A stretch of DNA of 57,596 bases, counting the filler, from Sphacelaria rigidula (lineage: Eukaryota): the NCBI GenBank assembly GCA_964200075.2. It is 7 parts of 7 records of this genome, joined end to end, with 100 filler letters (N's around TTAATTAATTAA, not from the genome) between each part and the next. Parts side by side here need not be neighbours in the genome. Positions count along the whole stretch, not along the records: positions 41,214 to 49,355 come from CAXNAA020012140.1; 6 more parts are not named here. One strand, 5' to 3'. Positions 3,454 through 55,470 of the stretch are shown one piece after another. The translations under genes and the position numbers were made by a program. Each line of letters starts with the position of its first letter. Positions within the stretch are counted from its first letter, which is position 1. The notes beneath the pieces were generated by a model. It was not told the origin of the DNA and searched no databases. It saw only the letters and a list, made by a program, of their open reading frames with translations.

Positions 3454-6030
3454 TCAAAGCTTCATACCATACTTTGCCTGTAAACGTTCTCGTACCTTTT
3501 TACTTAGTCCCAACTTACGCAGCTCAGATTTTACAAATTGCGGGGCTCCGTCCAAAATATTTTCCAGAGGCTCCCACGAGTCGTCATCTTTGCCAAATCC
3601 GACCCACTTCACTTGTGCATATAATCCATCTCCTGCTTCGCCCTCAGATATACCGACAATAACCGCCATCTCGAACTCGCCTTGTGCAAAAGCATACTGG
3701 AACACCTCCTTCACATCAGCCGTAATCTTCAGCTCCTTGTCCGCATAAAACCGAAGGCGGGCGACATGCACATCCTGTACCTCGCCATTCACAATGTTCT
3801 GTACCCCGTACACATGTTGTTGTTCTTCCGTCACAATCCGCCAAGGCCCCGTCCACGTACTCACAAGCTTCGGCGTAGTTCCCGAACGCCTCACCCTCGC
3901 CGCCAGCACGTAATCGCCCACCACAAAGTTAGGAAGCTTTCCCTTACTAGCCACACGTCTCTGTAGATCGCGATTCTTGTCGACACGCTGCGCCACCTTC
4001 TTGTGCCACTCTTGCTGAGCCTCAACGATTGACGTCACCTGTCGCCTCAAAGTGTCTTCGTCAAGCACATCGACGCTCCATTCGCCCCCAGTTGACGATG
4101 CCATAGTAGAGAAGCTGGTGCGCGGTGCCCGGCCAAACATAACATGGTATGGCGTGCTAGCATAACGCTCTCGGAAAGCAGTGTTCAATGCCCACTGCAC
4201 TGCAGGTACCAAACTCACCCATTCACGAACATCACGCCTTTCCTCTTGCAACATTGCCTTCAAGGTACGTACAATCTCACGCATCATTCACTCACAGGTG
4301 CCATTAGACCATGGGGAGTTAGCAACCGCGAATCGGCGATCCAGCTTCAGCGCCTTCTCAAGCGCTCTCATTACACGATTCTTGGAATGCGATGCCGTAT
4401 CGCTGACCCATACTTCTGGCGACCCCAGCGTTTTGCAACCATGTCAACAGATGCTTCATCGTCGTGGCCGCCGTACAAGACTCCGTGGGCTCCAACCGCA
4501 CGAAGTTGCACATATCGTCCATCATGATTAATATATACTTGAACCCATCTCCTTCGTCCAAGCCACTAGTTCCCAGGGGGCCACTCTCGCCAACGTAGAG
4601 AAAATCAAACTGCAGCACCTCCCCTGGGCGTGTACCATGCACCGTCTTCCCGAAGGGATGCGGGACCTTCTCCCCCGCCTTAAAATCCAAACAGTGCAGG
4701 CATTGCTTCACAAACTCAGTCACATGAGTCTCCATCCGGAAGCAACAACGATACTCTTGTAAGCGCTGTAAAGTTGCCACAACCCCTCGGTGACCAGCCC
4801 CTTTCATGTGAGCGCATACCATCAAGCGTGTTTGTAGTTCTCTCGCTTCCGGTGGGATCCACAATACATTCCTTCCTGCAACATGCACGCGAAACAAATC
4901 CTCACCGTCTTTGAGGACACGCCCAACAGCGGCAGTAAACGTCTCGACCCCATCAAACATACCTCCTAACCCCTCACGGCTTGCTCTTGGGCTTCACGAA
5001 CGGCCTCTTTCGACGGTAGCGTGTCATCAGCCTCTCCACTTGAAAAAACAGCGATGGCTCTCACGGATACCGCTGGAACGTTCACCCACCGGGACAGTAG
5101 ATCTCCCCAATAGTTACGCTCACCAGAAATATGCCTGATTGAATAATCATACTGCCCGACTACAGTCTTCTATTGTTCAAGAGGCTGGGCGGCAGTTTTC
5201 GCCAGTGTGGTCACGCATGCTTCGGGATCAAAAATATAAGCGAGATTGCGATGGTCCGTAAATATGGTCACTCCTCCCCACAAAAGGTACTCCAACCTAC
5301 GAAATGTACTCACGGTGGCATATCCTTCCTTGTCCACCGTAGCCCACCTCAACTGCGCTCCTCGAAACGTCGCACCAAGAAACCCTAGGGGCTCATGACT
5401 CATGCCCTCCACCGCTATATCGCTATTCGATTCAGCTCTCGGCACCTGGGTCACGAAACTACCCCAATGAAGATCCGACGCGTCTGGAAACATGTCGTCT
5501 CATAGCCCTCCTTGGGATGTGACAGAGCAACAGCATGTGCCACCAAATCTTGCGCCGCTGTCCAAGCTTGTGCACGTCCACGCCGCCTCTTTGATTGCCC
5601 TGTTTGAAGCAACCCGCTTTGTACCACGCACATTGCCGACCATATGCTCCTCGAGCAAAGACGAAGTGGCTCCACCATTTGAGCAAGGCGCGGAAGAGAC
5701 GTCCGCAACCAATTCACCGCTGGCAAAAATTGCATCAACTCGCCCGCGGTTTGAGGACGCCTCATACTCGCCAAACCGCTCAGTCTCTCCATGTCGTGAG
5801 CCACCTGCCTACCCGAGAGAACCTTTCCGCACCACGTAATTCGCGTAACATAAAACATACACTTGTGTGCAGCCGCAAAAAGACCAGTATCCTCGAGGCG
5901 GCTTAAAATCGCATTCAGCGTGCACAGCAAGTCATCTTCATTTGCCCTCCACCACAAGATGTCATCTACCCACACCTTTTATGGAAGTCCAGTCAATAGC
6001 TTCGTCATAGTGCCCTAAAAATACCATCGG
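3454..6030 (-). pseudogene. pol: Frameshifted pol remnant: RT C-terminal half, RNase H, integrase, chromodomain
   Basis: WVDD RT motif (ORF 5451-5975). DAS...W...D.E...FTDHRNL RNase H (5170-5493). H..GAGHRG...C..C zinc finger and DF core (4358-4960). Integrase C-terminus with WTGPW and chromodomain VKWVGF...SWEPLEN (3454-4287). Several frameshifts. Confidence 0.92.
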
Positions 6031-8143: not shown

Positions 8144-8243
8144 NNNNNNNNNNNNNNNNNNNNNNNNNNNNNNNNNNNNNNNNNNNNTTAATTAATTAAN
8201 NNNNNNNNNNNNNNNNNNNNNNNNNNNNNNNNNNNNNNNNNNN
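8144..8243. other. Artificial contig linker
   Basis: N44-TTAATTAATTAA-N44, which puts stop codons in all six frames. Confidence 0.97.
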
Positions 8244-16386: not shown

Positions 16387-16486
16387 NNNNNNNNNNNNNN
16401 NNNNNNNNNNNNNNNNNNNNNNNNNNNNNNTTAATTAATTAANNNNNNNNNNNNNNNNNNNNNNNNNNNNNNNNNNNNNNNNNNNN
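16387..16486. other. Artificial contig linker
   Basis: N44-TTAATTAATTAA-N44. Confidence 0.97.
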
Positions 16487-20079: not shown

Positions 20080-20600
20080 TCCCCGTCATACCACCCTATA
20101 GAGGGCACGTTGGTGTCGGTTGACAACGACTCTGTAGAATACGCCACTCGCTGCGCAAGCTGGGGAACCATGTCATCCGGGTTTTTTCGTTCGCGTGCGC
20201 TGTTTTCGCGGTAACCATGATGGTGGTCGAGTTACAACACATATGTTGTGCAAGGTGGAGGACCTCAACTCCGCGCAAAGGGGACCAACTTACCACGTAG
20301 TGTTTACATAGTAAGACACACATGGGGTAGTGTAACCCGTGGCTGTCTCTGGAAGTGGCGATACCAGAAAATGAAGCAACTCATTCGAGGCTGTCACCCA
20401 TGAGCAAAATAACTGGTACGCTTCAGGCCAAGCAATCTCAGAAGAATGTAGTTCATTCTTCATGTGATTAGCCGAACACATCACGGCGCTTCGCGCTTGG
20501 TGACAGCGAGCCTGGCCCGGCGAAAACCCGGCGCTCGTGCTCGGCTTTGTAGGGATGTGAGATTCATGGCCATATGACTACGTCATGCAGAATCATGAGT
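20080..20600. repeat. Interspersed repeat family, inverted copy at ~33720-34270 and a fragment at ~43383-43450
   Basis: GTGTAACCCGTGGCTGTCTCTG...CAGAAAATGAAG...CGAGGCTGTCA matches the reverse complement of 33955-34025. Confidence 0.85.
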
Positions 20601-23025
20601 ATACCCCCCCCCCCCCCCCCCAAAAGGGGGGGGGGAGGGGGAAGGCCTTGGAGTGGGGGGGGGAACGGTCGAAANNNNNNNNNNCCGGCGCTCGTGCTCG
20701 GCTTTGTTGGGGTTGGGGATTCATTGCCATTTATCTACGCCATGAAAAATTATGAGTTTCCCCCCCCCCCCCCCCCCCCGAAAGAGGGGGGGTGAGTGAC
20801 TGTCTCGTCTCGAAGCCGTATCGTCGACTCGAAATACAGGGAAATTCAGGGGTTTTCAGCATCTAAGGGCCCTCTTCGAGTGGGTTCGGGAGTAGGATTC
20901 CTAACCAACCTGTTATGTGTCCAGGGCATATGTCTTGTCGGGTAAGAGGCACGCCGGGGGAGCCCGGTGTCACTTCAGAAACGGGAGAGTGCATGTTGTC
21001 TTTGACTTCACGTTAAAAATCGTTCCATTCTCTGTGCAGTACCTTCTAATACCCGCAGTGTGTGCATTTGATACGTGTACTTTCCGTTGTCACCGGCTTA
21101 CTACCCAAAATTACGTTCAAGGAAATCAAGGAAAATATACGTAAATACCGTAGGACATCGTTAAAGGACATTCACCATCAGGCCATGTAACCACCGCTGG
21201 TTACATGTTCTAATGGTGGGTTCCCCTTCAAATGATAAACGTCCATTACGCAGGGGTCTACGCAGGGGACTACGGGGAAAATATTTCGGGACACGTAGGC
21301 CCAAGATCGAAAAAATGAGTTTTTCAGGGGGTGGGGGGCACACTCACCGTGCGGTCCCCTAGTTTTTTGACGAGGCGTTGGCGGATGTGGTCATCTCCCG
21401 TGTACAGAGATCCTTGGCATGGAGAACGCTGAGATGGCGCACATACCGCCCTCCCAAAGCTCATTACTCACCATGATAACATTTATGGGATCATGCTCTT
21501 TGTCGTGTGCCTCGAGTACCCACCAGTCGTCCGGGCAGGTTTGGCGAGTCATGATATGTTGTTGCTACTTTGGCTACAGGCTGTCGCTACCGTGCGCTCG
21601 TGTGTGTGAGCGTGGCCGGCATCTGAGGTCATCGGGACAGAGCGGGCAACGAGCAGAAGCAAATGTACGAATTCCGCAAAGCCCACCAGACTTTTCGGTT
21701 TCTGTCAGTATTTATTGATCGATTTCTTGCAGCGATATTCAACAAAAACAATCGAAAAATCATGACAATCTCCGAGAAAATACCCTCCGGGAGGGGGGAG
21801 GGCTCCGTGTCCGAAAATCTTCTTCCCGTAGCCCCCTGCACTGCGTGTTCTAATAGTTATGTTCATTATCTCAGGTGTGTGTTCGATTCTCGGTGAGTTC
21901 ACTTTTCCCCATCTGTCCGGACGTGTTTTTCCGGCGCTGACTACATAATCCAGTGGTGAATTTCGTCGAATATACCAACGATGTGCGGGTTCGAATCACG
22001 GCGCGGTTTCTCTCTCTCTCCCGCCCGGACGTGGTTTTCCGGGGGAGGAAAAATATCGCCTGTAGTTGCTTCAGTCCTGAGATCATGCAGCGGTGGCGAG
22101 GGGCTTTCGACCTCAAAGCATATATCTCTTTGCCGACTACATAGTCTGCTGGTGAATGACCTCTAATGAGGAGGAGATAGAGTCCATCGTGCCCACGCGG
22201 CACGCTAAACCAAGAAATAAATAGACCCAGATCAAAAACTAAAGGTTACCAACCAAGACAAGAAAAAATCGCATCGCTCTATCCTTGTACCCGTACAATA
22301 ATTGACCAGCGTGTATCACCCACCGGTTGTAGGCCGCCCGTGCCCTTTCCCCACACATACCTACGTATATGCAGAGGGTTTTCAACATCTAGACGATATC
22401 AAGTTATCACATATTCTTATTCCGGAATAATCCTAGTTGGGCTCCACGAGCAAGACACCCTCCCGCCGAACGCAGACACTCGAGAGACAACCATACGTAC
22501 GAGCATGTTGGACATTCAAAAGAAAAACACCACATGACAATACATCAATCACGTTGGGGAATGGTGCAATTGACGGAAGGAGTTGGCAAAGAAACCGACA
22601 GAGGGGTGGTGGGCATTCCTGTCACCTCCGCCATATTCAATCCGGTACATATCTCGCTACATAAGGTATATATATACGAAGTATATATATATATATATAT
22701 ATATAACCCTCCAGAATAAATGACTAAGTCATGAAAGATGACGTGTTTGTACATGCAATCAAGCTCCAGCGCTGCATCAAATATATATATATACGTATAC
22801 TGTAGTATATATACCGGAATGCCCGCACTTGGTCCGCATACGAACACCATTGCACTTTTGAACATAATCTTTGCTTGATAATTTCTCGACCGTGGGTGAA
22901 GTCATCACCATGAAACTTGGTGCACTAGTCGGACACAACACAGGCATTACATGCACCGGAGGACAGCTACAGCTCCTTTCGATCACCGAGCAATTAAACT
23001 AAGCGAATACCGATATACCGTCGAC

Positions 23026-24629: not shown

Positions 24630-24729
24630 NNNNNNNNNNNNNNNNNNNNNNNNNNNNNNNNNNNNNNNNNNNNTTAATTAATTAANNNNNNNNNNNNNNN
24701 NNNNNNNNNNNNNNNNNNNNNNNNNNNNN
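24630..24729. other. Artificial contig linker
   Basis: N44-TTAATTAATTAA-N44. Confidence 0.97.
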
Positions 24730-32871: not shown

Positions 32872-32971
32872 NNNNNNNNNNNNNNNNNNNNNNNNNNNNN
32901 NNNNNNNNNNNNNNNTTAATTAATTAANNNNNNNNNNNNNNNNNNNNNNNNNNNNNNNNNNNNNNNNNNNN
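32872..32971. other. Artificial contig linker
   Basis: N44-TTAATTAATTAA-N44. Confidence 0.97.
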
Positions 32972-41113: not shown

Positions 41114-41213
41114 NNNNNNNNNNNNNNNNNNNNNNNNNNNNNNNNNNNNNNNNNNNNTTAATTAATTAANNNNNNNNNNNNNNNNNNNNNNNNNNNNNNN
41201 NNNNNNNNNNNNN
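41114..41213. other. Artificial contig linker
   Basis: N44-TTAATTAATTAA-N44. Confidence 0.97.
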
Positions 41214-41284
41214 GGATGTCTGACACACTTATGAGCCTCTTTTTTCGTGCAACCAAATACCCCCCCCCTATCGTAGGATGACTC
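41214..41284. mobile_element. End of a Sola-like MITE inserted into TPR exon 4
   Basis: CCCCTATCGTAGGATGACTC matches the TIR of 23026-23232 and abuts TPR coding sequence. Confidence 0.78.
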
Positions 41285-41310
41285 AGCAACTCCGCATCCG
41301 CGTACTGGCC
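41285..41310 (-). pseudogene. Interrupted TPR exon 4 (GQYADAEL...)
   Basis: TGCAG acceptor followed by 26 coding nt, then the MITE. Confidence 0.75.
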
Positions 41311-41608
41311 CTGCATTGTAACAGACAGCGTGAGGGCGTCATCGCTCTAACCACGGCTGGACCTACAACTACGGCGAGATGCTCGGATCAACGCTCCGCC
41401 CAGGCGTGCAACGGATGAGCGCTCTATGCTTAGAACCTACCCTACTACGCCCGATCCCTTCACGGCTTCGACCTACAACCACTCGATTCTGCCGCACCCA
41501 TCGCCCCACGACACGGTTGCCCAGAGCATCCGTAAACAACATCAAACATAACACAGCGGTGTAGATACATCGGCATACAAACACCAAGACATATCTATCG
41601 CCTCTCAC

Positions 41609-41734
41609 CTGAAGTCCATACAACACCGCACGGTTGCCGAGCGTTGAGGCCAAGTCCGGGTGCACAGGGCCTAGAACCTTCTCCTGGATCGCCTGGCACC
41701 GCTCGTACAGCAACTCCGCATCCGCGTACTTGCC
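41609..41734 (-). CDS. NB-ARC-TPR gene, TPR exon 3
   Basis: 126 bp, phase 0-0, AG/GT boundaries. GKYADAELLYERCQAIQEKVLGPVHPDLASTLGNRAVLYGLQ. Confidence 0.92.
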
Positions 41735-42031
41735 CTGCAGCGTAGCAGACAGTGTGAGGGCGTCGTCTCTCAAGCCACGAATGGATCCACAACTACGACG
41801 AGATGCTCGTGCCACCGGCGCCGCCTTGGTGTGCAGCCAGTCAGCGCCCTATGCTTAGAACAAACCCTACTACGCCCGATCCCTCCACGGCTTCGACGTA
41901 CAACCACTTGATAATGCCGAACCAATCGCCCCACGACACGGTGGACCAGAGCATCAACGAACAACATGGTACGCCACGCAGCGGTGTACACGTCGGCACA
42001 CATACACTAAGACGTCTCCATCGCCTCTCAC

Positions 42032-42157
42032 CTGAGCCCCATACAACCCCGCACGGTTGCCGAGCGTTCCGGCCAAGTGCGGGTGCTCAGGGCCTAGCAC
42101 CTTCTCCTGGATTGCCTGGCACCGCTCGTACAGCAACTCCGCATCTGCGTACTTGCC
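42032..42157 (-). CDS. NB-ARC-TPR gene, TPR exon 2
   Basis: 126 bp, phase 0-0. GKYADAELLYERCQAIQEKVLGPEHPHLAGTLGNRAGLYGAQ. Confidence 0.92.
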
Positions 42158-42455
42158 CTGCAGTGTAGCAGACAGCGTGAGGGCGTCACACCTAAAGCCA
42201 TAGCTGGAACCACAACTGCGGCGAAATGCTGGCGCCACCCCCCCGCCCAGGTGTGCAACGGATGAGCGCTCTACGCTTAGAACCAACCCTACTACGCCCG
42301 ATCCCACCACGGCTTCGACGTACAACCACTTGATTCCGCCGCACCCATCGCCCCACGACACGGTTGCCCAGAGCATCAGCGAACAACATGGTACGCCACA
42401 CAGCGGTGTAGACACGTCCACACACAAACACCAAGACGTCCCCATCGTGTTCCAC

Positions 42456-42581
42456 CTGAGCTACATACACCCTCGCACGGTTGACAAGCGTTACGGTCAA
42501 GTGCGGGTGCTCAGGGCCTAGCACCTTCTCCTGGATCGCCTGACACCGCTCGTACAGTGGCTCTGCGTCCGCGTTCTTGCC
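42456..42581 (-). CDS. NB-ARC-TPR gene, TPR exon 1
   Basis: 126 bp, phase 0-0. GKNADAEPLYERCQAIQEKVLGPEHPHLTVTLVNRARVYVAQ. Confidence 0.9.
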
Positions 42582-45369
42582 CTGCAGTATAGTAGACAGC
42601 GCGAGGGCGTCATTTATCAGGGCACAGCTGGACCTACAACTGCGGCGACATGATCGTCAGACCGCTCCGTCCAGGTGTGCAGCCGGCCAGCACTCTATTC
42701 TCAGACCCAACCCTACTACGCGCGATCTCTGCACGGATTCGACGTACAACCCCTCGATTCCGCCGCACGCATCGCCCTACGGCACGTTGGCCCAGAGCAT
42801 CAGCGAACAACATCAAACACCACAGAATCGGAGACACGTGAAGAAACGCCTTCGTCGGTTATTATTATTATTTATTATTATTTTTCCGTAACTGCCCACT
42901 ATTCAAGAAAGGGGAAAATAAAGAGCAACCGTAACCCTCGCCCCCAAGTTTGTGCGCGCTGACAGACTCGTCGAAAACTCCTGAACCGTTTGATATCCCC
43001 ACGTTGGATCCGAAATGTGTTCATTCACTGCGCGATCCCGTCTGACGAAAATAACGGAAGCGGGACCGTCGAGGACAAACATGGTATTTTTGTGTTCGAC
43101 GGAGAAATACCTGCAGCTGTCAAGATCCAAGCCAGAACGTTACACTCGTGACTTGAAGTAAGGGAAACACCCCGCAATGAAACAAAGCACATAGCGGTGT
43201 GCACTAGCTGAAGAAGATTGCGTAGACCGCACCGTAGACAGCGTCATCGATTTACAGTTTCTCCCCACTCGAAAGTAGAATATTGTCGATGAAGTGATGA
43301 GATACGTCGTTTTTCTACCAACATGGAACGTATTTCATATCATCTACGTGGAAACGCTCTATCCTTGACTGCAATTGTGTGAGGGGGGGTGTACTCATGA
43401 TCATGCATGCCATAGTCATCAGACCATTGACCTCGCGTCCCTACAAAGCCNNNNNNNNTGGGACTGGGCGGGGAGGGTCGTGCTGGTGTGGTGGTGGGGG
43501 GGGGGGGGGGGGGGGGGGTGACGTGTACATACAGGCAGTAAAGTGGAGTGTGCTCCCCCACAAACAGCCTGGATCTTCGTCGGAGTGTAAATGTATGATG
43601 TTTTTGGCCTAGATGTTGCCAAGTTTCGCTGATGCTCGACGTAATAAAACGCATATGAATTACGCGGGACAAAATCAGAAAATGTGGGGTCAAATTATTT
43701 TGACGCTCTTCGAAGCATTTTGGTAGCGATAGCGATATCAATGGAAACGGGACAAGACTTCCACTCGGGGATATCACAACGGCCAAGAAAGGATAGTTTA
43801 TTGTACACATGTAGGGTCTGAAGCTGGTGAAAAGCAAACTGAAAGATGAGGGTTTCGAGACAGGGAAAACGTGAGTGCATCAGCAGAAGAGAGTATTTTC
43901 TGGTGCACATGTAGGTCGTCAACCCTTTCACCCCCAGGTACCGTCCAAGGGCAAGCGATCTGTTGAATCGGCATCACTTGACTCATTTTTCAAGCGTAAA
44001 TAATTCGAATTCCACAGTTTGCATACTGTACCCCAGTGGTGGCAGGCTCGAAGGGTTTACGTGGAAGTATCAACAAGCACAATGACATAATATTGTCATT
44101 ATGTGGGTTTCTATATCGAAGGTGAGAATTTCGGTCAAAAATTCGGTGATCATAATTGCCATTGACAAGGGTTGAGATGATTCGAATCAACTGCTACTCG
44201 GGGTGGAATATATTAATATACCATGGCAGGCATGGTGTGGAGATCAGACGCCATCCTACAATTTACTTTCTGTGACTACATAGTGGGGTTGAGAAGCTGA
44301 TACACTAGTTCTAGCTAAATCAGGAGGATTTTTGTAATTTTTCGTAGTCCGCCATTTGCAACGGTTCGTTCGGATGCCACCGCTGATCCCAGTCAAAGTT
44401 TGACCTCCAAGTTTGAGGATCGGAATATATTAGGCATCCGCTCCGAATTCCGGAGCACAAATAGTATTTGCGCTCAATATTGAACGACTTGCGGGCTAAA
44501 TCAGCAGGAAGTGTCACTGATGATTTTAGTCCAAAAAACAATCATTTCCAGCTCTAGCGCAATGAAGAAGTAAAGACGATAAAATAATGCTCTGTAAAAT
44601 TTATCACGAGAGCGATCGAGGTTGATTCAATCCCTCGCCTCTGTAATGTACAGAGCTCGGTTGGGCAATTTCGTAGTAGAGTATTTTTCTGAATTTTCTG
44701 GCATCGTATTCTTCCCCCGCACTCGGAAGTCTTTACGGCGATAGATATTGGGTGAATACGCAGGTGGAACTCAGGACACAATCTATAAGGTAGTGTTGTC
44801 GGGGTGATACGGAGCAAGGACCTCGTTCATCACGGGGGGTACTATCGACCGTTACTGGCCCAAAATACACAGTTTTTCGGCTCTAGCGCAATGAAACAGG
44901 CAGAAATTAAAAAGAACAAAACTGTACAATCGTTCACGAGAAATGAGCAAATATTGCACCGTGGGGTGAAAATACGCTTAGCGGCACGTCGGCGCCTGGC
45001 TACTGTTTCAAGCGGACACGGTGTGCTTTTGCCTATGGCCAACCGCTTACTACTGAGGAACCAGCGATTCGCGCTGGTGCACATTTATGTTGGACCACAT
45101 GTTCGGTGGCAGTCCGGCGCTTCAAGGCCTCTACTGTGGACGATGACCGCACGGCACAAGCTGCCCATCCGGTCTCGAATCCAAACCAATCGTTGAAAGT
45201 CGGCACCAAACTTCGTGCCTGCGTTTGGACGTGGGTTTGCCCGAAAGGGACTTTCGTTTCGAGCGAAACCTACGAATTGGTGAAGATCGTGAAATCGAAA
45301 CATGCCAAATCGCCTGATTTCGGGTCCACCAGAGTTGATCCTAGCCATGTCTGAAATCTCCAGTGCTTC

Positions 45370-48071
45370 TGTTCCGGATTGACAGGTCATATTTCAGTCG
45401 ACTGGGCTCCATGTGATAAGTTTTAGTCATGCCTGGTATTCGATGTGCCATACTCCTTTCTTCAGCTTTCTGGGATTGTGCCCCCTGCTTGCTGTCAAAA
45501 CGGTTTTTACCGACATTCGAGACGTCTACCAAGCATACAGCCTGTTCGCCGATAATAAAAAGAAGCATGAAGGGCATCTCCGGGACTGCTCATCAGAGTT
45601 CACTCTGGTCTTCGGCTATAAAGCCCATCTTGCATGCATTAGATGCTGCTCGTGTTATTTGTGTCGTCACTTGCGCTGTGTTCGGGCCTCACATGGTATA
45701 CCCACCACCGAATTCGTGCAGATTGGTTGTGCAAGAATGCGCACGAGCACAGCGGTGCTCGGGCACCCATGAACTGGCGTTTGTTCTATACAGCGTATTT
45801 ATCCCTTGCAGTCTGTGTTTCGTACCATGGCCCCGCGACCACACGCACTAGATTCCGGGGGGAAAGCTTAGTGCGAGTACAACTGCTTTCATGGGATGTA
45901 GTACGCTGTGTCAGTGACGCGATCATAATCAAAGGATAGGCAACAATACTGCTCCACTGTACCTGTAAACGCTCGCCCTCCTATCGCTGTCAAGAGTTAA
46001 TGTGCCGTACAACTGTAGCACGACGTCCATACCCATAATCCGGTTATCTCACACCTACTCAGCTACGATATGTTAAACCAGACTACAGACCCGGTCAACA
46101 ACCGTCGTTGTACAACTCACGCGTTCGAGGTCATGTTACTTCATTTCTTGAATCAAATCGCCTTTTTCCATGTATTTTGTTCATAATAGTTCATTTATGG
46201 TATTTCATTCAGCATGCCTTGTTTTGATTTTTTTATTCACTATTCCAGTGATTTTGTCTCCAGGTTTTACAGAATTCGACGAAAGATTGGGGGGATGGTT
46301 GCTCGATATGTTGACGAAATCGCACAGATCATGGACTCAGAGATGGAATGAGTATGTTTCACCCGCGCTCTCCGATCAAGCGCACCCTACCTGACGTTCT
46401 GCTACCGTCTGGCATGTCTCCCTTCGAGCTCTTGTTTGGCCGTAAGCATCGCACACGTGCGGTTGCTGTCTCAGAGATACAAACCCTTCCGTGTCCGCGC
46501 ACCCCATATGAGACACGTCATAGCCGACAAGTTTTCTCGACACGTGTGGGGACCAATCTGGGAAACGACACCTACATCTTATCTGACTCCTGAATTCGTC
46601 ACCTTGGTACAGATCGCTCAGAAATCCGCTCTGTTTGAGGCACTAAGGTATAGAAAAACAGAGGGAAGACTCCAGCGGGGGGAAGTTTAAGACAGTTTCT
46701 CCCACTCAGACCTTGATGTTTTCCACGCACTCCTCTGGCATTTACATCACTCCATATTTTCTTCTAGCGTGCCACCGCACCCGAAGGAGTGCCCTGCCAC
46801 CCTGTCACGCAGCGATCCCTTGAAGCTTTTCCCCATAGGTTTTACCTTCAGGAAGGACTTTAGCGGTGCCAAGATGAAGGTCCAGGTGTATGACTACAGA
46901 AATCACTTCTGGAGCGTGCGATAAGAGGATGGGGACTGGGAAGAGCTATCTCGCCGTGAACTCAAGCGTCCAACGCTTGAGAAGGGACACCAAATGTAGA
47001 TTGCGGCACTAGGGTTCACAAGGAGCTATGTTATGACTGTATGTCTCGTTGTCGGATAGAAAAACGACGTACGGGTATGATTCCCGTGAGCAGCGGTGTG
47101 TTTGTACCCAGGGCCAATACACGTCTTCTCTTGTACGTTAGACCACGTTGTACGGAAACCAATCCGTATTTGTACCAATATGAGTATTTCAGCCCGTTTG
47201 AACCTGATTTTCTCCCGTGGATTGATTTTTCGGACCCCAGTCCGTTGGGCAATGTTTTTCGCCTAGCTCTGAGGAAAAGCCTCATGTGATCCCATACCCA
47301 CTGACCAGTTCGTGGGAAGGCTTTTTTAGTGTTCCCGTTAGCGCCAGGTTTGGTTCGAGCCCCTCACGTATCCAGGATACAGTGTCGCTCATCTGGGGTG
47401 TTGACGCACAGCCGGGATAGCTAATCTCCAGTGTCACTGACGTGCCGGGAAGACTGTGGGGCAGGCGAATGCGGTTTCTGTGGTCGGAAAGATAGTCAGA
47501 TGTATTTTTCTTCCCTCAAGGCTGGGGTTTTCCCTGCCTAACAGGGTTTACCCGTTCATGAGATTCGCGACGAGGTTTCCCCTGCACTGTAATCATGAAG
47601 GTTTTCGCGTTTCATCTTCAGGCGGATGATGCGTAGGCTTGTCGTTTTTTTCGTCCCTTTCAGCCCTTGCTTACTTTTGTTTGGCCTGATACATCAGGCT
47701 GGGGGCATGTTCCGGATTGATATATCATATGCCACTCGACTGGGCTCTGTCATATTTTAGTTATGCGGTACTCGAGGGGTCATACTCCTTTCTGGGGTCG
47801 TGCCCCCTCTTGTCACAGCGGTCTTGACCGACACTCGAGACGTCTAGCAAGCATATAGCGTGTTGGCCGATAACAGAAAAAGCATCAACGCCATCCCTGG
47901 GACTGCTCATCAGAGGTCACTCTGACTTGCGGCTAGAGTAAGCCCGTCTTGAATGCAGCAGGTGCTGCTCGCGTTGTTTGTACGGCCACCCACACTGTGT
48001 TCGGGCCTCACTTTGTATGCGTACCACCGAACTCGTACATATCGGTTATGCAAGATGCATGCACACGGCCA
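45370..48071 (+). mobile_element. Old, internally deleted Ty3/gypsy element in the NB-ARC-TPR intron
   Basis: Diverged LTRs start TGTTCCGGATTGA at 45370 and 47708. PPT-like GGGGGCA precedes the 3' LTR. CA end at 48071, with CTTC on both flanks. Integrase remnants WNEYVSP.../MSPFELLFGR (~46345-46450) and EDGDWEELS (~46930). Confidence 0.8.
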
Positions 48072-48386
48072 CTTCTCTCTCATGACTCATGCTCGTTTAA
48101 TAAGTGGCTTTGCCTCAACATATGTTGTAACAACCAGCATTAAGTGACGGCAAACCGTTCATCGAACCACGCCAATACTGCAGTAGAAATATCATATTTT
48201 GACCGCACGAAAGCTTTCACAACACGATCACCCCGTTCTCACAACATCCCGCCTAAGCGATGAACTTGGCTCGTGACAACCACCGTCATGACAAGCGTAT
48301 ATTTTGTCGTGGCAACCGCCCAACATTACCTCGGGCCACATCTCACATCTCGTGCTGCGGGAGTTTTGCACAGCAAACAAAGGTAC

Positions 48387-48597
48387 TGTAATGTGTCGGA
48401 GGACCGCGTGCGTTTTGGACCGCAGCGGAGTTTAAACGCCCCTATGGTTGGGGTTGAAATTGGGATCAGTGTTAGGACCAGGATCAGGGACGCGGCCACT
48501 ACAGGGACTGGCCCGAGCGTTCTTGAAAAACGTCGATTCCGGGGGGCTCAAAATGCCATGAGGTCCGAAAGAGCGCGCGGTCCTCCCACGCGTTACA
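48387..48597. mobile_element. 211-bp TGT...ACA MITE (same family as 55260-55470)
   Basis: TIRs TGTAATGTGTCGGAGGACCGCGTGC / GCGCGCGGTCCTCCCACGCGTTACA. Confidence 0.75.
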
Positions 48598-48665
48598 ATG
48601 CATCATCTACTGACAAGTACTTGCTCTAGGTGAAAGTGGGCGTGAAAAATAGACCTAGAACCCAC

Positions 48666-49052
48666 CTGCAGTAGAAACAGCCCCCCGATAAGCGCATAGA
48701 CATTGGCCACGTCGGTCGACTCAGCTTCACCCAAGTCCCTCAGGCTAGCTTCATAGGTCTCCACCTCCAGTTGCTTATTGCCGGACAGGTCCTCCAGTGA
48801 TCGCCAGAGACGAATCAGCGCGTACAAGTTTGTGATCAGCCCCTTGTTTTGACGAAAGTCCCTGACCACGGGCAGCTTGCCCAAGAAGTGCGTTTGGCGG
48901 CTGACAGCATCCTTGACCAAGTCCTGCCTGTTCCTACACTCCACTTTGATGAAGTCCGACAGTAGATCGTGAAGCCGAAACGAGCATTTCACCTCATGCA
49001 ATAGAGCATTGTGCGCGAGGAACTCAGCTCCCGCTCTGGCCCCTTCGTCATC
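48666..49052 (-). CDS. NB-ARC-TPR gene, winged-helix/linker exon with an MHD-like motif
   Basis: 387-bp phase 0-0 exon, CTGCAG|GAT...CTGCAG|GTGGG. DDEGARAGAEFLAHNALL...SFRLHDLLSDFI...DVANVYALIGGLFLLQ. LHD corresponds to the STAND NTPase MHD motif. It lies on the same strand, upstream of the TPR exons. P-loop exons are outside the contig. Confidence 0.8.
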
Positions 49053-49253
49053 CTGCAGCGCGGTTCAGTGACGACGGACACGTCAGTGTCACGTATTCGT
49101 GATCCTACAAGTTTCACAATAACAAAAACTGTTTTGATGGCCCCAACTGACGGTAATCACTACATAGTCACGGTACCCTGTGTTGTTTTTTTCGCCACTT
49201 CATGGATGTTCAAGCCATGCCCCTCAATCGACGTGCGGTAAGATCAGGACACC

Positions 49254-49284
<31 letters not shown>

Positions 49285-49355
49285 GGCGGGGGGGGGGGAG
49301 GGGGAAAAAACAACTAGAGGTTAAATGGGAAAAAAAAAAAAAATTTCTTTTTTTT

Positions 49356-49455
49356 NNNNNNNNNNNNNNNNNNNNNNNNNNNNNNNNNNNNNNNNNNNNT
49401 TAATTAATTAANNNNNNNNNNNNNNNNNNNNNNNNNNNNNNNNNNNNNNNNNNNN
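49356..49455. other. Artificial contig linker
   Basis: N44-TTAATTAATTAA-N44. Confidence 0.97.
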
Positions 49456-53537: not shown

Positions 53538-54894
53538 TAGGCTCTACTTTCGTATGCGCGTTTCCATCTTGAATAGCTCCGGTTTTTTTTTTATACGCTT
53601 TTATTTTGTTTTCAAGCCCCATTTGAAGCCTTTTTAGCGCAAATTAGGCGCGCTTTACGCGCCTTATTCCCGTCCTTGTTCTGGCGTTGTGGCAGTATCC
53701 CCTCACGAGGCGCGCCTTCTAGCATGAGGACAAGACGACAAGTTGGGCATTCGAAGTTTTGTTGATTATTTATAATTAAAAAATGAAGCTTTTCTTCAGT
53801 TATTGAGTTTGGAGACCACAACTTGCACACCTACACCCTAACCACGTACGGAAATAACAAGAGCCACTACACTTATGATACTTGATACAGCAGTAGGGTT
53901 TTGCAGCCTCTAGACACAGGGTATTGCGGCTTTTGGCCTCTCGCCCGGCAAGCTACAAGCTCAAAGCTACCACCCCTCCCCCACCCCCCCCCCCCCCCCC
54001 CCCCCCACACCCCCCCCCCCCCCCCCCCCCACANNNNNNNCTAAGCCGGGGTTTCTTGTCCTTTGTCCCCCCGCCCGGCAAGTTATAAGCCCAAACCTCC
54101 CCCCCCCCCCCCCCCCCCCGCATCATTTACCGTCAGTCGAAATTGAAAATCTTGTCTAACTACCGGTACCGATTGTACAACATCATAACCGCGGATTCGA
54201 TCCGGCCACCTAACTCTTTCTCGTGCCGGGAGTTCAAGTACCCCCTCAAAAAACACTCGCTCCATGGGCGCGGACGATGGCTGGATAAGTACAATATCCA
54301 TCGCCACGAGATTCCAACTGGGAAGCCTGTTCTCGTTGTCATCCCGAAACGACAGCAAACCATACTCCGAGTGCGCGCCAGAGGCTGCGACCAAAAAGTA
54401 GTAGTTCTCGGACAGTAGGCCCGCCATGACCTCGTCAATTACAAACGGGAAAACAGCAAGCTGGCGGACCTCGTCCCCGGTGTAGCCTGCGTGCTGCTTC
54501 ATGTATTTAGTACAAGCGTATTATTTATCCAGTCTTTGACATATTTTTGAAAGCAACGTAGTACCCTGTCTATTAGATGAAAACTGGAGCAGTTTGTTCA
54601 TCAGACCCGCAACACAATAGTAACACGAAACATGACCATGGAAATTCGGAAGTATCAAGTATTGGAGCCTAAAGACTGACGCCTGTCGGCCTGTGGGGTG
54701 ACGAGTTACGCCACATGGAGCACTGGCGAGCAAAAAAGTATCGCAGTTTTATGCGCGTTTGTGCGCGTTTCAAGCAAGTTAAGCTCGTCTCAAGCGTATT
54801 AAGCCGATTATAAGCTTTGCGCTAAACAGGCCTATTCAAGCTCAAAAACCGAAATTATGCTTAACTTCATGCGCGCATACGGAACTAAGGCCTA
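53538..54894 (-). mobile_element. Internally deleted hAT DNA transposon
   Basis: TIRs TAGGCTCTACTTTCGTATGCGCG / CGCGCATACGGAACTAAGGCCTA. The 8-bp flanks CTTTCCTT/CTTTTCTC match 6/8. Contains a transposase remnant. Confidence 0.7.
54160..54502 (-). pseudogene. hAT transposase C-terminal dimerisation-domain remnant
   Basis: LPSWNLVAMDIVLIQPSSAPMERVF, then a frameshift to ...IESAVMMLYN. Confidence 0.78.
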
Positions 54895-55259: not shown

Positions 55260-55470
55260 TGTAATGCGTGAGAGGACCGCGTGCTTAGAGGACCGCATCG
55301 GAATTTGAACATCCCCATGGTTAGGGTTAGGGTTAAGGTTAGAGTTGGGGTTATAGTCAGGAGCGTGGTACCTGCAGGGACTGGCCCGATTGATCCCGAA
55401 AAACATCAATCCTGAGGTGTTTTGAACTACGGCGCGATCCTCTAAGCACGCGGTCCTCTCACGCATTACA
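55260..55470. mobile_element. 211-bp TGT...ACA MITE with an internal telomeric-like tract
   Basis: Perfect 33-bp TIR TGTAATGCGTGAGAGGACCGCGTGCTTAGAGGA. Core GGTTAGGGTTAGGGTTAAGGTTAG. Confidence 0.85.

Follow-up and report, generated by a model that had tools for sequence, protein, structure and literature searches.

The window analysed here is a 57,596-nucleotide stretch of DNA (filler included) from the brown alga Sphacelaria rigidula (GenBank assembly GCA_964200075.2), and the subject of this report is a tandem array of tetratricopeptide repeat (TPR) exons that it carries on the minus strand, in what appears to be a gene of the NB-ARC-TPR family. The window is interrupted about every 8242 bases by linkers of the form N44-TTAATTAATTAA-N44 (8144-8243, 16387-16486, 24630-24729, 32872-32971, 41114-41213 and 49356-49455), and is thus composed of seven pieces of about 8.14 kb each. 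Hence, the true context of the array is limited to positions 41214-49355 (record CAXNAA020012140.1). A feature cannot be assumed to continue across a linker, and adjacent pieces may not adjoin in the genome.

Tandem Repeats Finder gave a single array at 41284-42813 (period 424, 3.6 copies, 83% matches, 0% indels, score 2036). Shifted copies of the piece were found with E = 0.0 when it was compared with itself by blastn, and a repeat search gave copy spacings of 425/422/424 and 423/424. Together with a unit that has no exon, the array spans 41284-42854. Each unit consists of one stop-free, phase-0 exon of 126 bp, bounded by AG and GT, and of an intron of 297-298 nt with a GTG[GA]... donor and a ...[CA]TGCAG acceptor, the splice sites of the array being those predicted from the sequence. 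A preliminary description of the locus had claimed that the repeated unit includes the whole intron of about 297 bp, and both the period of 424 and the intron lengths of 298, 297 and 298 nt agree with it. In the order of transcription, the features of the locus are:

48666-49052, minus strand: 129-aa exon, 387 nt, phase 0, with acceptor ctgcag/GAT and donor CTGCAG/gtgggt
42855-48665, minus strand: putative long intron with repeat relics, which would total 6084 nt together with 42582-42854 if it is spliced across
42582-42854, minus strand: unit 0, a copy of the intron that retains its ...CTGCAG acceptor but has lost its own exon and the first ~40 nt of intron
42456-42581, minus strand: TPR exon 1, 126 nt, 42 aa, phase 0 (TPR_12, E 2.7e-7)
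42158-42455, minus strand: intron 1, 298 nt, GT..AG, with a conserved core at 42277-42376
42032-42157, minus strand: TPR exon 2, 126 nt, 42 aa, phase 0 (TPR_10, E 1.2e-6)
41735-42031, minus strand: intron 2, 297 nt, GT..AG, with a conserved core at 41855-41954
41609-41734, minus strand: TPR exon 3, 126 nt, 42 aa, phase 0 (TPR_12, E 3e-7)
41311-41608, minus strand: intron 3, 298 nt, GT..AG, with a conserved core at 41430-41529
41284-41310, minus strand: TPR exon 4, truncated to 27 nt, the first 9 codons (GQYADAELL), recognised by a partial tblastn match and by alignment
41214-41283, no strand assigned: end of a high-copy repeat that adjoins the broken exon 4; the piece ends at 41214

The exons read GK[N/Y]ADAE[P/L]LYERCQAIQEKVLGP.HP.L..TL.NRA..Y..Q, and the exon peptides are, in order, GKNADAEPLYERCQAIQEKVLGPEHPHLTVTLVNRARVYVAQ, GKYADAELLYERCQAIQEKVLGPEHPHLAGTLGNRAGLYGAQ and GKYADAELLYERCQAIQEKVLGPVHPDLASTLGNRAVLYGLQ. 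All three matched both TPR_12 and TPR_10 of Pfam (E 3e-7 to 3e-6), the Pfam cut-off being reached by all three for TPR_10 and by two for TPR_12. These matches and the three stop-free frames between AG and GT bear out the earlier assignment of a 42-aa TPR stretch to each 126-bp phase-0 exon. The equation of one exon with one TPR, which went with it, holds for the length, as each exon is one 42-residue period, but not for the register. Residue 1 of the exon falls on position 16 of the 42-position TPR_10 profile, hence the exon is one period and not one structural TPR. In terms of the TPR fold, it combines helix B of one repeat with helix A of the following one. Nine of the 11 variable residues are found at exon positions 24-41, the amino-acid differences being concentrated in the half that encodes helix A. 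As the exons are 126 nt long and in phase 0, and the donor of the preceding exon is in phase 0 too, the frame is kept when a unit is added, removed or skipped, as had been pointed out before. The array has three intact exons only, and a tblastn search of the whole window with the exon peptide found no further TPR exon on either strand at E < 0.1 (25 rows up to E 10).

The identity of the gene comes from the 129-aa exon located 6 kb upstream of the array. This exon appears to encode the end of a winged-helix part, in which there is an LHD motif, followed by a linker of helices and the first half of a TPR, and it ends with ...ESTDVANVYALIGGLFLLQ, which is exactly the register where the TPR exons begin (GKY...). 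A full HMMER search (phmmer) gave 136 relatives at E<=1e-3, the best of which are 63-66% identical; a word-indexed protein search gave 626 candidates ("longer" lengths) and none at E<=1e-3. When ten long relatives were scanned with Pfam, NB-ARC (PF00931) was found immediately N-terminal of the matched stretch in all ten, TPR_12/TPR_10 immediately after it in seven, and an APAF-1-like winged-helix match overlapping its start in one. Eight relatives were looked up, and the five with names were all from brown algae (Sphacelaria rigidula, Nemacystus decipiens twice, Cladosiphon okamuranus and Choristocarpus tenellus). The short relatives, which are read-through open reading frames (ORFs) of contigs, mostly end with "...LQV", so the end of the exon is conserved; the "...LQ/V" end is common to most rows of the relatives' alignment.

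An AlphaFold2 model of the 129-aa exon (mean predicted local distance difference test score, pLDDT, 77.3) shows a helix, a β-hairpin, an LHDLL-bearing helix and five further helices, which fits a winged-helix tail with a linker. A Foldseek search of the PDB with this model gave 0 matches at E<=0.001, and the best match of a sequence-profile search of the PDB (E 0.035) was to unrelated proteins, hence the winged-helix reading derives from homology and secondary structure. The 153-aa ORF that holds the exon matched no Pfam family. Upstream of the exon end at 49052, just 300 nt of the piece remain, and no NB-ARC domain is found in the window. The homology of the neighbouring exon supports the placing of the locus in a brown-alga gene of the NB-ARC-TPR (NLR/STAND-like) type, of which it would be the 3′ part; this is the family named in the preliminary description, and the matched region is the one that follows NB-ARC in it.

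A comparison by eye with the motif of the Ectocarpus TPR exons, GKYxEA[E/D]PL[Y/F]...Gx[D/E]xxx[V/I]AxxLxNxAxLLxxQ (PMC3341825, in the passages cited here), points the same way. In the exon sequence GKYADAELLY...GPEHPHLAGTLGNRAGLYGAQ, the residues G, K, Y, A, E, L and Y, and then G.E...LA..L.N.A.L...Q, are retained in register, with four departures from the printed motif: D replaces E, L replaces P, L replaces V/I, and the spacer has 11 residues vs the 8 printed. In metagenome contigs the exon motif had 0 matches, and a protein alignment gave 114 pattern matches, none of which was confirmed.

Exon and intron identities are 86.5% and 83.8% between units 1 and 2, 83.3% and 82.9% between units 1 and 3, and 91.3% and 80.7% between units 2 and 3. 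The introns thus align end to end at 81-84% identity, compared with 83-91% for the exons, and the intron copy of unit 0 is 74-77% identical to the other three introns. The proportions of synonymous differences (pS) between the exons are 0.28, 0.21 and 0.13, with ratios of nonsynonymous to synonymous rates (dN/dS) of 0.27, 0.69 and 0.54 (Nei-Gojobori). The intron divergence of 16-19% is inside the synonymous range of the exons (0.13-0.28), which is what neutral decay after an old joint duplication predicts. The introns are alignable because they were copied together with the exons and then drifted neutrally, and no upkeep of their likeness is required. The claim that the introns stay alignable is therefore correct as an observation, but there is no sign of upkeep behind it. 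Exons and introns group alike if an exon is taken together with the intron upstream of it, exons 2 and 3 being the closest exons and introns 1 and 2 the closest introns.

The explanation that we favour, at a probability of roughly 0.65, is that of an old, quiet and partly broken array in an NB-ARC-TPR gene, which grew by ordinary tandem duplication of exon plus intron and whose introns have been drifting neutrally. The TPR domain would be built of 126-nt phase-0 exons, each spanning two neighbouring 42-residue TPRs, with helix B from the first and helix A from the second. The array would have grown by tandem duplication of the 424-bp block of an exon and its whole intron, via either unequal exchange or replication slippage, and after each duplication the introns would have drifted at about the neutral rate. 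Damage would have affected both ends, where an exon was lost upstream and another one was cut by a high-copy repeat downstream.

The same units are present in the samples X1 and X4, two runs from different studies that were examined, like X5 and X6, as Logan contigs. (Nine of the eleven runs listed contain a part of the stretch, one of the nine is labelled "algae metagenome" and none is listed as RNA; the "RNA?" labels of X6-X9, which hold small shares of the stretch, are guesses.) In X1, where the single-copy depth is about 65 and the flanks of the array have depths of 65-70.8, exact unit-specific contigs cover 41286-41447, 41711-41881, 41885-42099, 42159-42318 and 42513-43405 at depths of 60.9-67.8; the parts in between (41448-41710, 42100-42158 and 42319-42512) are gaps in the contigs listed and not findings. 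In X4, contigs at 41286-41447, 41711-41879, 41885-42094 and 42516-43405 have 0-3 differences each and depths of 18.3-30.5, compared with 24.5-34.1 in the flanks, where the contigs differ from the window by 0-8 letters. These differences and depths indicate a different individual with the same units, once each. The boundary at 42854 is bridged in both samples (by the contigs 42513-43405 of X1 and 42516-43405 of X4). Among the 15 joints listed of 104, none is located inside 41285-42854, contigs being prone to drop rare variants. The agreement between X1 and X4 speaks against rampant variation of the array.

A separate observation concerns the 5′ part of TPR exon 1 (42540-42573). Contigs with G>A at 42552 reach depths of 5047 in X1, some 80 times the single-copy value, of 3301 in X4 and of 14280 in X6. 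The start of the TPR exons, which is conserved, thus occurs many times in the genome, and possibly also in transcripts of high abundance.

Both ends of the array are damaged. At the downstream end, the bin 41214-41485 has a depth of 659134 in X1, and 70 contigs of X1, 71 of X4 and 21 of X5 match up to 41284 and then continue into unrelated sequence (agreement 0.34-0.39). Hence, a high-copy repeat ends exactly at the break of exon 4. At the upstream end, unit 0 has lost its exon and is directly preceded by a (TAA)n run (42855-42885). Given the damage at both ends and the quietness of the array, this locus is probably in decay, in a family whose members arise and die at high rates, its loss of function being likewise probable.

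Several bins of the putative long intron have depths from 1e3 to 3e6 in X1, and tblastn found no TPR or NB-ARC match in 42855-48665. Two direct repeats in this region, 45370-45745 and 47708-48067 (blastn; ~370 nt, 77% identity, 2.3 kb apart), may be old long terminal repeats (LTRs). The ORF between them, 46315-46590, was considered as an integrase relic and discarded, as it had no Pfam match at E<=0.01. Just downstream of the donor of the 129-aa exon, 48387-48597 resembles 55260-55470 of the window's last piece (212 nt, 69% identity), and the X1 depth of 3170 in bin 48286-48557 marks this stretch as a dispersed repeat. Elsewhere in the window, at 3457-5978 on the minus strand, three consecutive ORFs form the relic of a chromodomain LTR retrotransposon (Chromo, E 7e-7; Integrase_H2C2, E 7e-8; a weak RVT_1, E 0.004).

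Upstream of unit 0, an element with G/C runs and a core of about 70 nt ending with CCCTACAAAGCC is found at 43383-43528, and again at 20543-20610, 53971-54031 and 49254-49305. Its bin depth in X1 is 3.3 million, and runs of N are located inside or beside its copies (43451-43458, 20675-20684 and 54034-54040). In 48 contigs of X1 and 53 of X4, position 41284/41285 is joined to 43381-43387 with sides of 22-53 nt, although a homopolymer artefact is possible. According to these joints, the two repeat flanks of the array seem to be adjacent elsewhere in the genome.

Such joints, and the high-copy repeats that adjoin the block on both sides (41214-41283 and 43383-43528), would be expected if the 2.1-kb TPR block (41285-43382) had been carried in or moved by a repeated element or transposon. 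We regard this as exceedingly unlikely. The sides of the joints are only 22-53 nt long and involve C/G homopolymer runs, and joints of this type are often derived from repeats. The two flanks are not related by any inverted or direct repeat, no terminal inverted repeats surround the block, and its reading frame and register are those that should follow the exon at 48666. For the Ectocarpus family, it is reported that transposons showed no sign of being involved (PMC3341825).

Several observations weigh against an old array that merely decays by neutral drift. Among the four intron copies, four sites at alignment columns 202-207 group units 0 and 3, and four sites at columns 333-339 group units 1 and 3; as no single tree fits both clusters, at least one exchange or conversion between units must have happened in the past. 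The conserved core of the introns (alignment columns 221-320) has 13 variable columns out of 100 in units 1-3, compared with 63 of 196 in the intron flanks and 24 of 126 in the exon, and pure neutral decay does not predict such a core of low variability. In the three intact exons, neither the splice sites nor the open frames have been lost, and the gene may still work if it is spliced in frame from 48666 to 42581 and skips exon 4. With respect to the family, there is no P-loop in the six frames of the window, and the NB-ARC part of nine relatives had no tblastn match, their matches being located at 48300-49058 and 41549-42764 only. As far as the samples are concerned, Logan contigs are interrupted by repeats and lose variants that are rare, so copy-number or somatic variants may escape them, and X1 may be the very sample behind the assembly. 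Finally, no listed contig bridges the junction at 41284 into the array.

This last point, together with the short N runs and homopolymer tracts that inspection of the sequence reveals near the array, would suit the assumption that the array or its ends are an assembly artefact made of collapsed or chimeric repeats that were misjoined. The chance of this is very small. In X1, every unit is covered in part by exact unit-specific contigs of single-copy depth. X4, which belongs to another study, has these pieces too, with few single-nucleotide polymorphisms, and the boundary at 42854 is bridged in both.

The incompatible site clusters bear more directly on the idea, central to the preliminary description, that the homologous introns are a working recombination substrate, on which ongoing germline or somatic crossovers alter the number and order of the TPRs and thus diversify the receptor. 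Besides the one or more past exchanges that the clusters require, the whole-intron period and the phase-0 design would preserve the frame in all such events, the longest tract shared identically by any two units (40 bp, units 1 and 3) is located in the intron core, and somatic recombination has been proposed for the family (PMC3341825, passages cited). Other observations are opposed to it. With differences of about 17%, the units are not homogenised, as frequent exchange would make them, and the longest tracts of identity are 39 bp (exon, units 1 and 2) and the 40 bp just mentioned. Efficient homologous recombination usually requires identity over stretches as long as these or longer. X1 and X4 have the same unit-specific contigs at single-copy depth. 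The parsimony-informative sites among the four intron copies are distributed as 3, 5 and 6 over the three possible groupings, and neighbouring sites agree in 6 of 13 cases vs about 4 expected by chance (calculated by hand), so the mosaic signal among the introns is weak. In addition, according to PMC11378527, no somatic recombinant locus is on record for NB-TPR or ROCO genes. A present role of the introns as recombination substrate is thus not supported, and we consider it quite improbable. In kind, the process would be the ordinary unequal exchange of duplicated exon-intron units, which would explain the origin of the array.

Variation could instead be generated at the level of RNA, where TPR exons of equal length and phase 0 would act as cassette exons and alternative inclusion would vary the set of TPRs without any rearrangement of DNA. 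The in-frame design of the exons suits this possibility, and one 207-nt contig of X6 joins 42031 to 41733, which is the predicted exon 2/exon 3 junction to within one ambiguous G. With 20 mismatches in 204 nt, this spliced contig derives from a paralogue and not from the array locus. Hence, it shows that members of the family are spliced at the predicted sites, but says nothing for the array locus itself. X6 also contains exact unspliced pieces (42362-42517 and 42686-42836, at depth 3), and may hold DNA or pre-mRNA. No skipped-exon junction was seen in the contigs, and just three intact exons are available in the array. We therefore think that alternative inclusion is doubtful as the explanation of this array.

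The old, quiet array remains the preferred explanation, and one feature that it leaves unexplained is the intron core, with copies of ~100 nt, one per intron copy, at:

42701-42800, minus strand: core of the unit 0 intron copy
42277-42376, minus strand: core of intron 1
41855-41954, minus strand: core of intron 2
41430-41529, minus strand: core of intron 3

The difference in variability between the core and the intron flanks gives a Fisher p of 4e-4 for a region chosen after looking, and in a scan permutation the low variability of the core was reached in 31 of 5000 trials. A hidden coding exon was rejected as an identity of the core, since there is no codon-position bias (variable columns 10:6:8). 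The intron was likewise rejected as a structured RNA or microRNA precursor (folding z of -0.05 and +0.66, covariation term of +0.25, with 3 of 68 pairs compensated), and a search of 41214-49355 with Rfam gave 0 matches at E<=1. Local alignments of the exon with the intron gave no relic TPR exon either, as the best z of 2.14 was reached by 15 of 300 shuffles.

The core may represent one conversion tract or a cis-element, between which four copies cannot discriminate. A functional cis-element, such as a regulator of splicing, a source of small RNA or a recombination signal, whose likeness is maintained by selection or targeted conversion, would account for a variability below that of both the flanks and the exon. 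There is no codon bias, excess of folding, covariation or Rfam match to go with it, all four copies are from one array, and a single conversion tract would look alike. Moreover, the intron-only bin 41758-42029 has about four times the single-copy depth in X1, for which the four local copies alone could suffice. We hold a functional element of this type to be improbable. More specifically, the core could be a dedicated cis-signal for pairing and exchange or for regulated skipping of the TPR cassettes, with the repeat-flanked 2.1-kb block as a movable cassette donor, an idea that we put forward as a long shot. If it were true, the core would provide the mechanistic handle that is missing for the "controlled exon shuffling" proposed for the immune receptors of brown algae.

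An article by Teng et al. in 2023 (Plant J 114:246) reportedly, by its title, deals with the NB-ARC-TPR family in other brown algae. The exon-per-repeat design itself has been in print since 2012, and in this respect the preliminary description was right in recalling that exon shuffling of NB-ARC-TPR and ROCO-LRR genes had been proposed in Ectocarpus with the mechanism left open. Zambounis et al. (2012; PMC3341825) described 24 NB-ARC-TPR genes in Ectocarpus, 13 of which have a TPR domain of 42-aa (126-nt) exons, and found inactivated TPR exons in introns, almost only on the coding strand. They stated that the mechanism "was not investigated in depth", argued that it is not simply illegitimate recombination, noted a high birth and death rate of the family, and drew an analogy to the variable lymphocyte receptors (VLRs) of lampreys (PMC3341825). 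For Ectocarpus, TPR exons have also been predicted as targets of microRNAs (PMC3874173; PMC3341825). According to PMC11378527 and PMC13449251, Teng et al. extended the family to other brown algae and favoured alternative splicing, and no somatic recombinant loci are on record.

The present locus resembles the Ectocarpus genes in its 126-nt/42-aa phase-0 exons, in the exon motif and, judging by the relatives of the 129-aa exon, in the position of the TPRs after the NB-ARC region (PMC3341825). It also resembles them in that truncated or inactivated exons are on the coding strand, none being found on the opposite strand here (E < 0.1, tblastn), and in the signs of gene death (PMC3341825). In contrast to those genes, no NB-ARC is found in the window, and the species is another one, the best relatives of the 129-aa exon being just 63-66% identical. 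The sections and passages cited of PMC3341825 contain no statement of the joint duplication of whole introns and of their decay at the synonymous rate, which may be in print.

The LRR-ROCO genes of brown algae, whose repeats are leucine-rich repeats (LRRs), are similar in having one repeat per exon, equal exon lengths and a constant phase, and in being candidate immune receptors (PMC3341825; PMC11378527). They differ in having LRR exons of 72 nt in phase 2 (PMC11378527) and a ROC-COR GTPase instead of NB-ARC. Their introns often contain LRR exons on the opposite strand, whereas no opposite-strand TPR exon was seen here (PMC3341825; PMC11378527). A literature search found no paper on Ectocarpus TPR exons with "unequal crossing".

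In fungal WD40, ANK and TPR NLRs, the repeats of high internal conservation (HIC) are contiguous, near-identical coding sequence and not one exon each. They share with the present case the type of receptor (NB-ARC/NACHT), the gain, loss and shuffling of repeats, for which unequal crossing-over is a hypothesis, and hypervariable positions on the binding face (PMC13449251, passages cited). The brown-alga case is termed there "a sort of weak HIC" (PMC13449251). Near-identity of repeats is not found here, as the exons are 83-91% and the introns 81-84% identical, the longest tract is 40 bp and the units are separated by introns. A parallel in terms of the duplicated block is the classical case of exons duplicated in tandem through unequal exchange between introns, such as kringle IV-2 of human LPA, where an exon and an intron with symmetric phase were duplicated together, and where the copy number varies greatly and the units are nearly identical. 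Exon duplication is said to have been reviewed by Patthy. Unlike in LPA, no variation was seen between the two samples here, and the units have diverged by about 17%. In lampreys, the germline VLR gene is incomplete and receives its cassettes by somatic copying. The use of repeat cassettes as building blocks of candidate receptors is alike, as in the published analogy (PMC3341825), but the array described here consists of ordinary spliceable exons in transcriptional order and shows no somatic joint among the 15 listed of 104.

Brown algae have no NLR-LRR types of plants and animals, and NB-ARC-TPR and LRR-ROCO proteins are their main candidate pathogen sensors. The exons that encode the repeats of these sensors could be reshuffled by passive unequal exchange or by a controlled or somatic process, or their sets could merely be varied by alternative splicing. 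Although the array does not represent a new kind of system, it is of value as a worked case and for the lead provided by its intron core. In summary, the duplicated unit of exon and intron, the intron clock that equals the synonymous clock and the agreement of two samples favour plain tandem duplication, and speak against constant reshuffling at this locus of the family.

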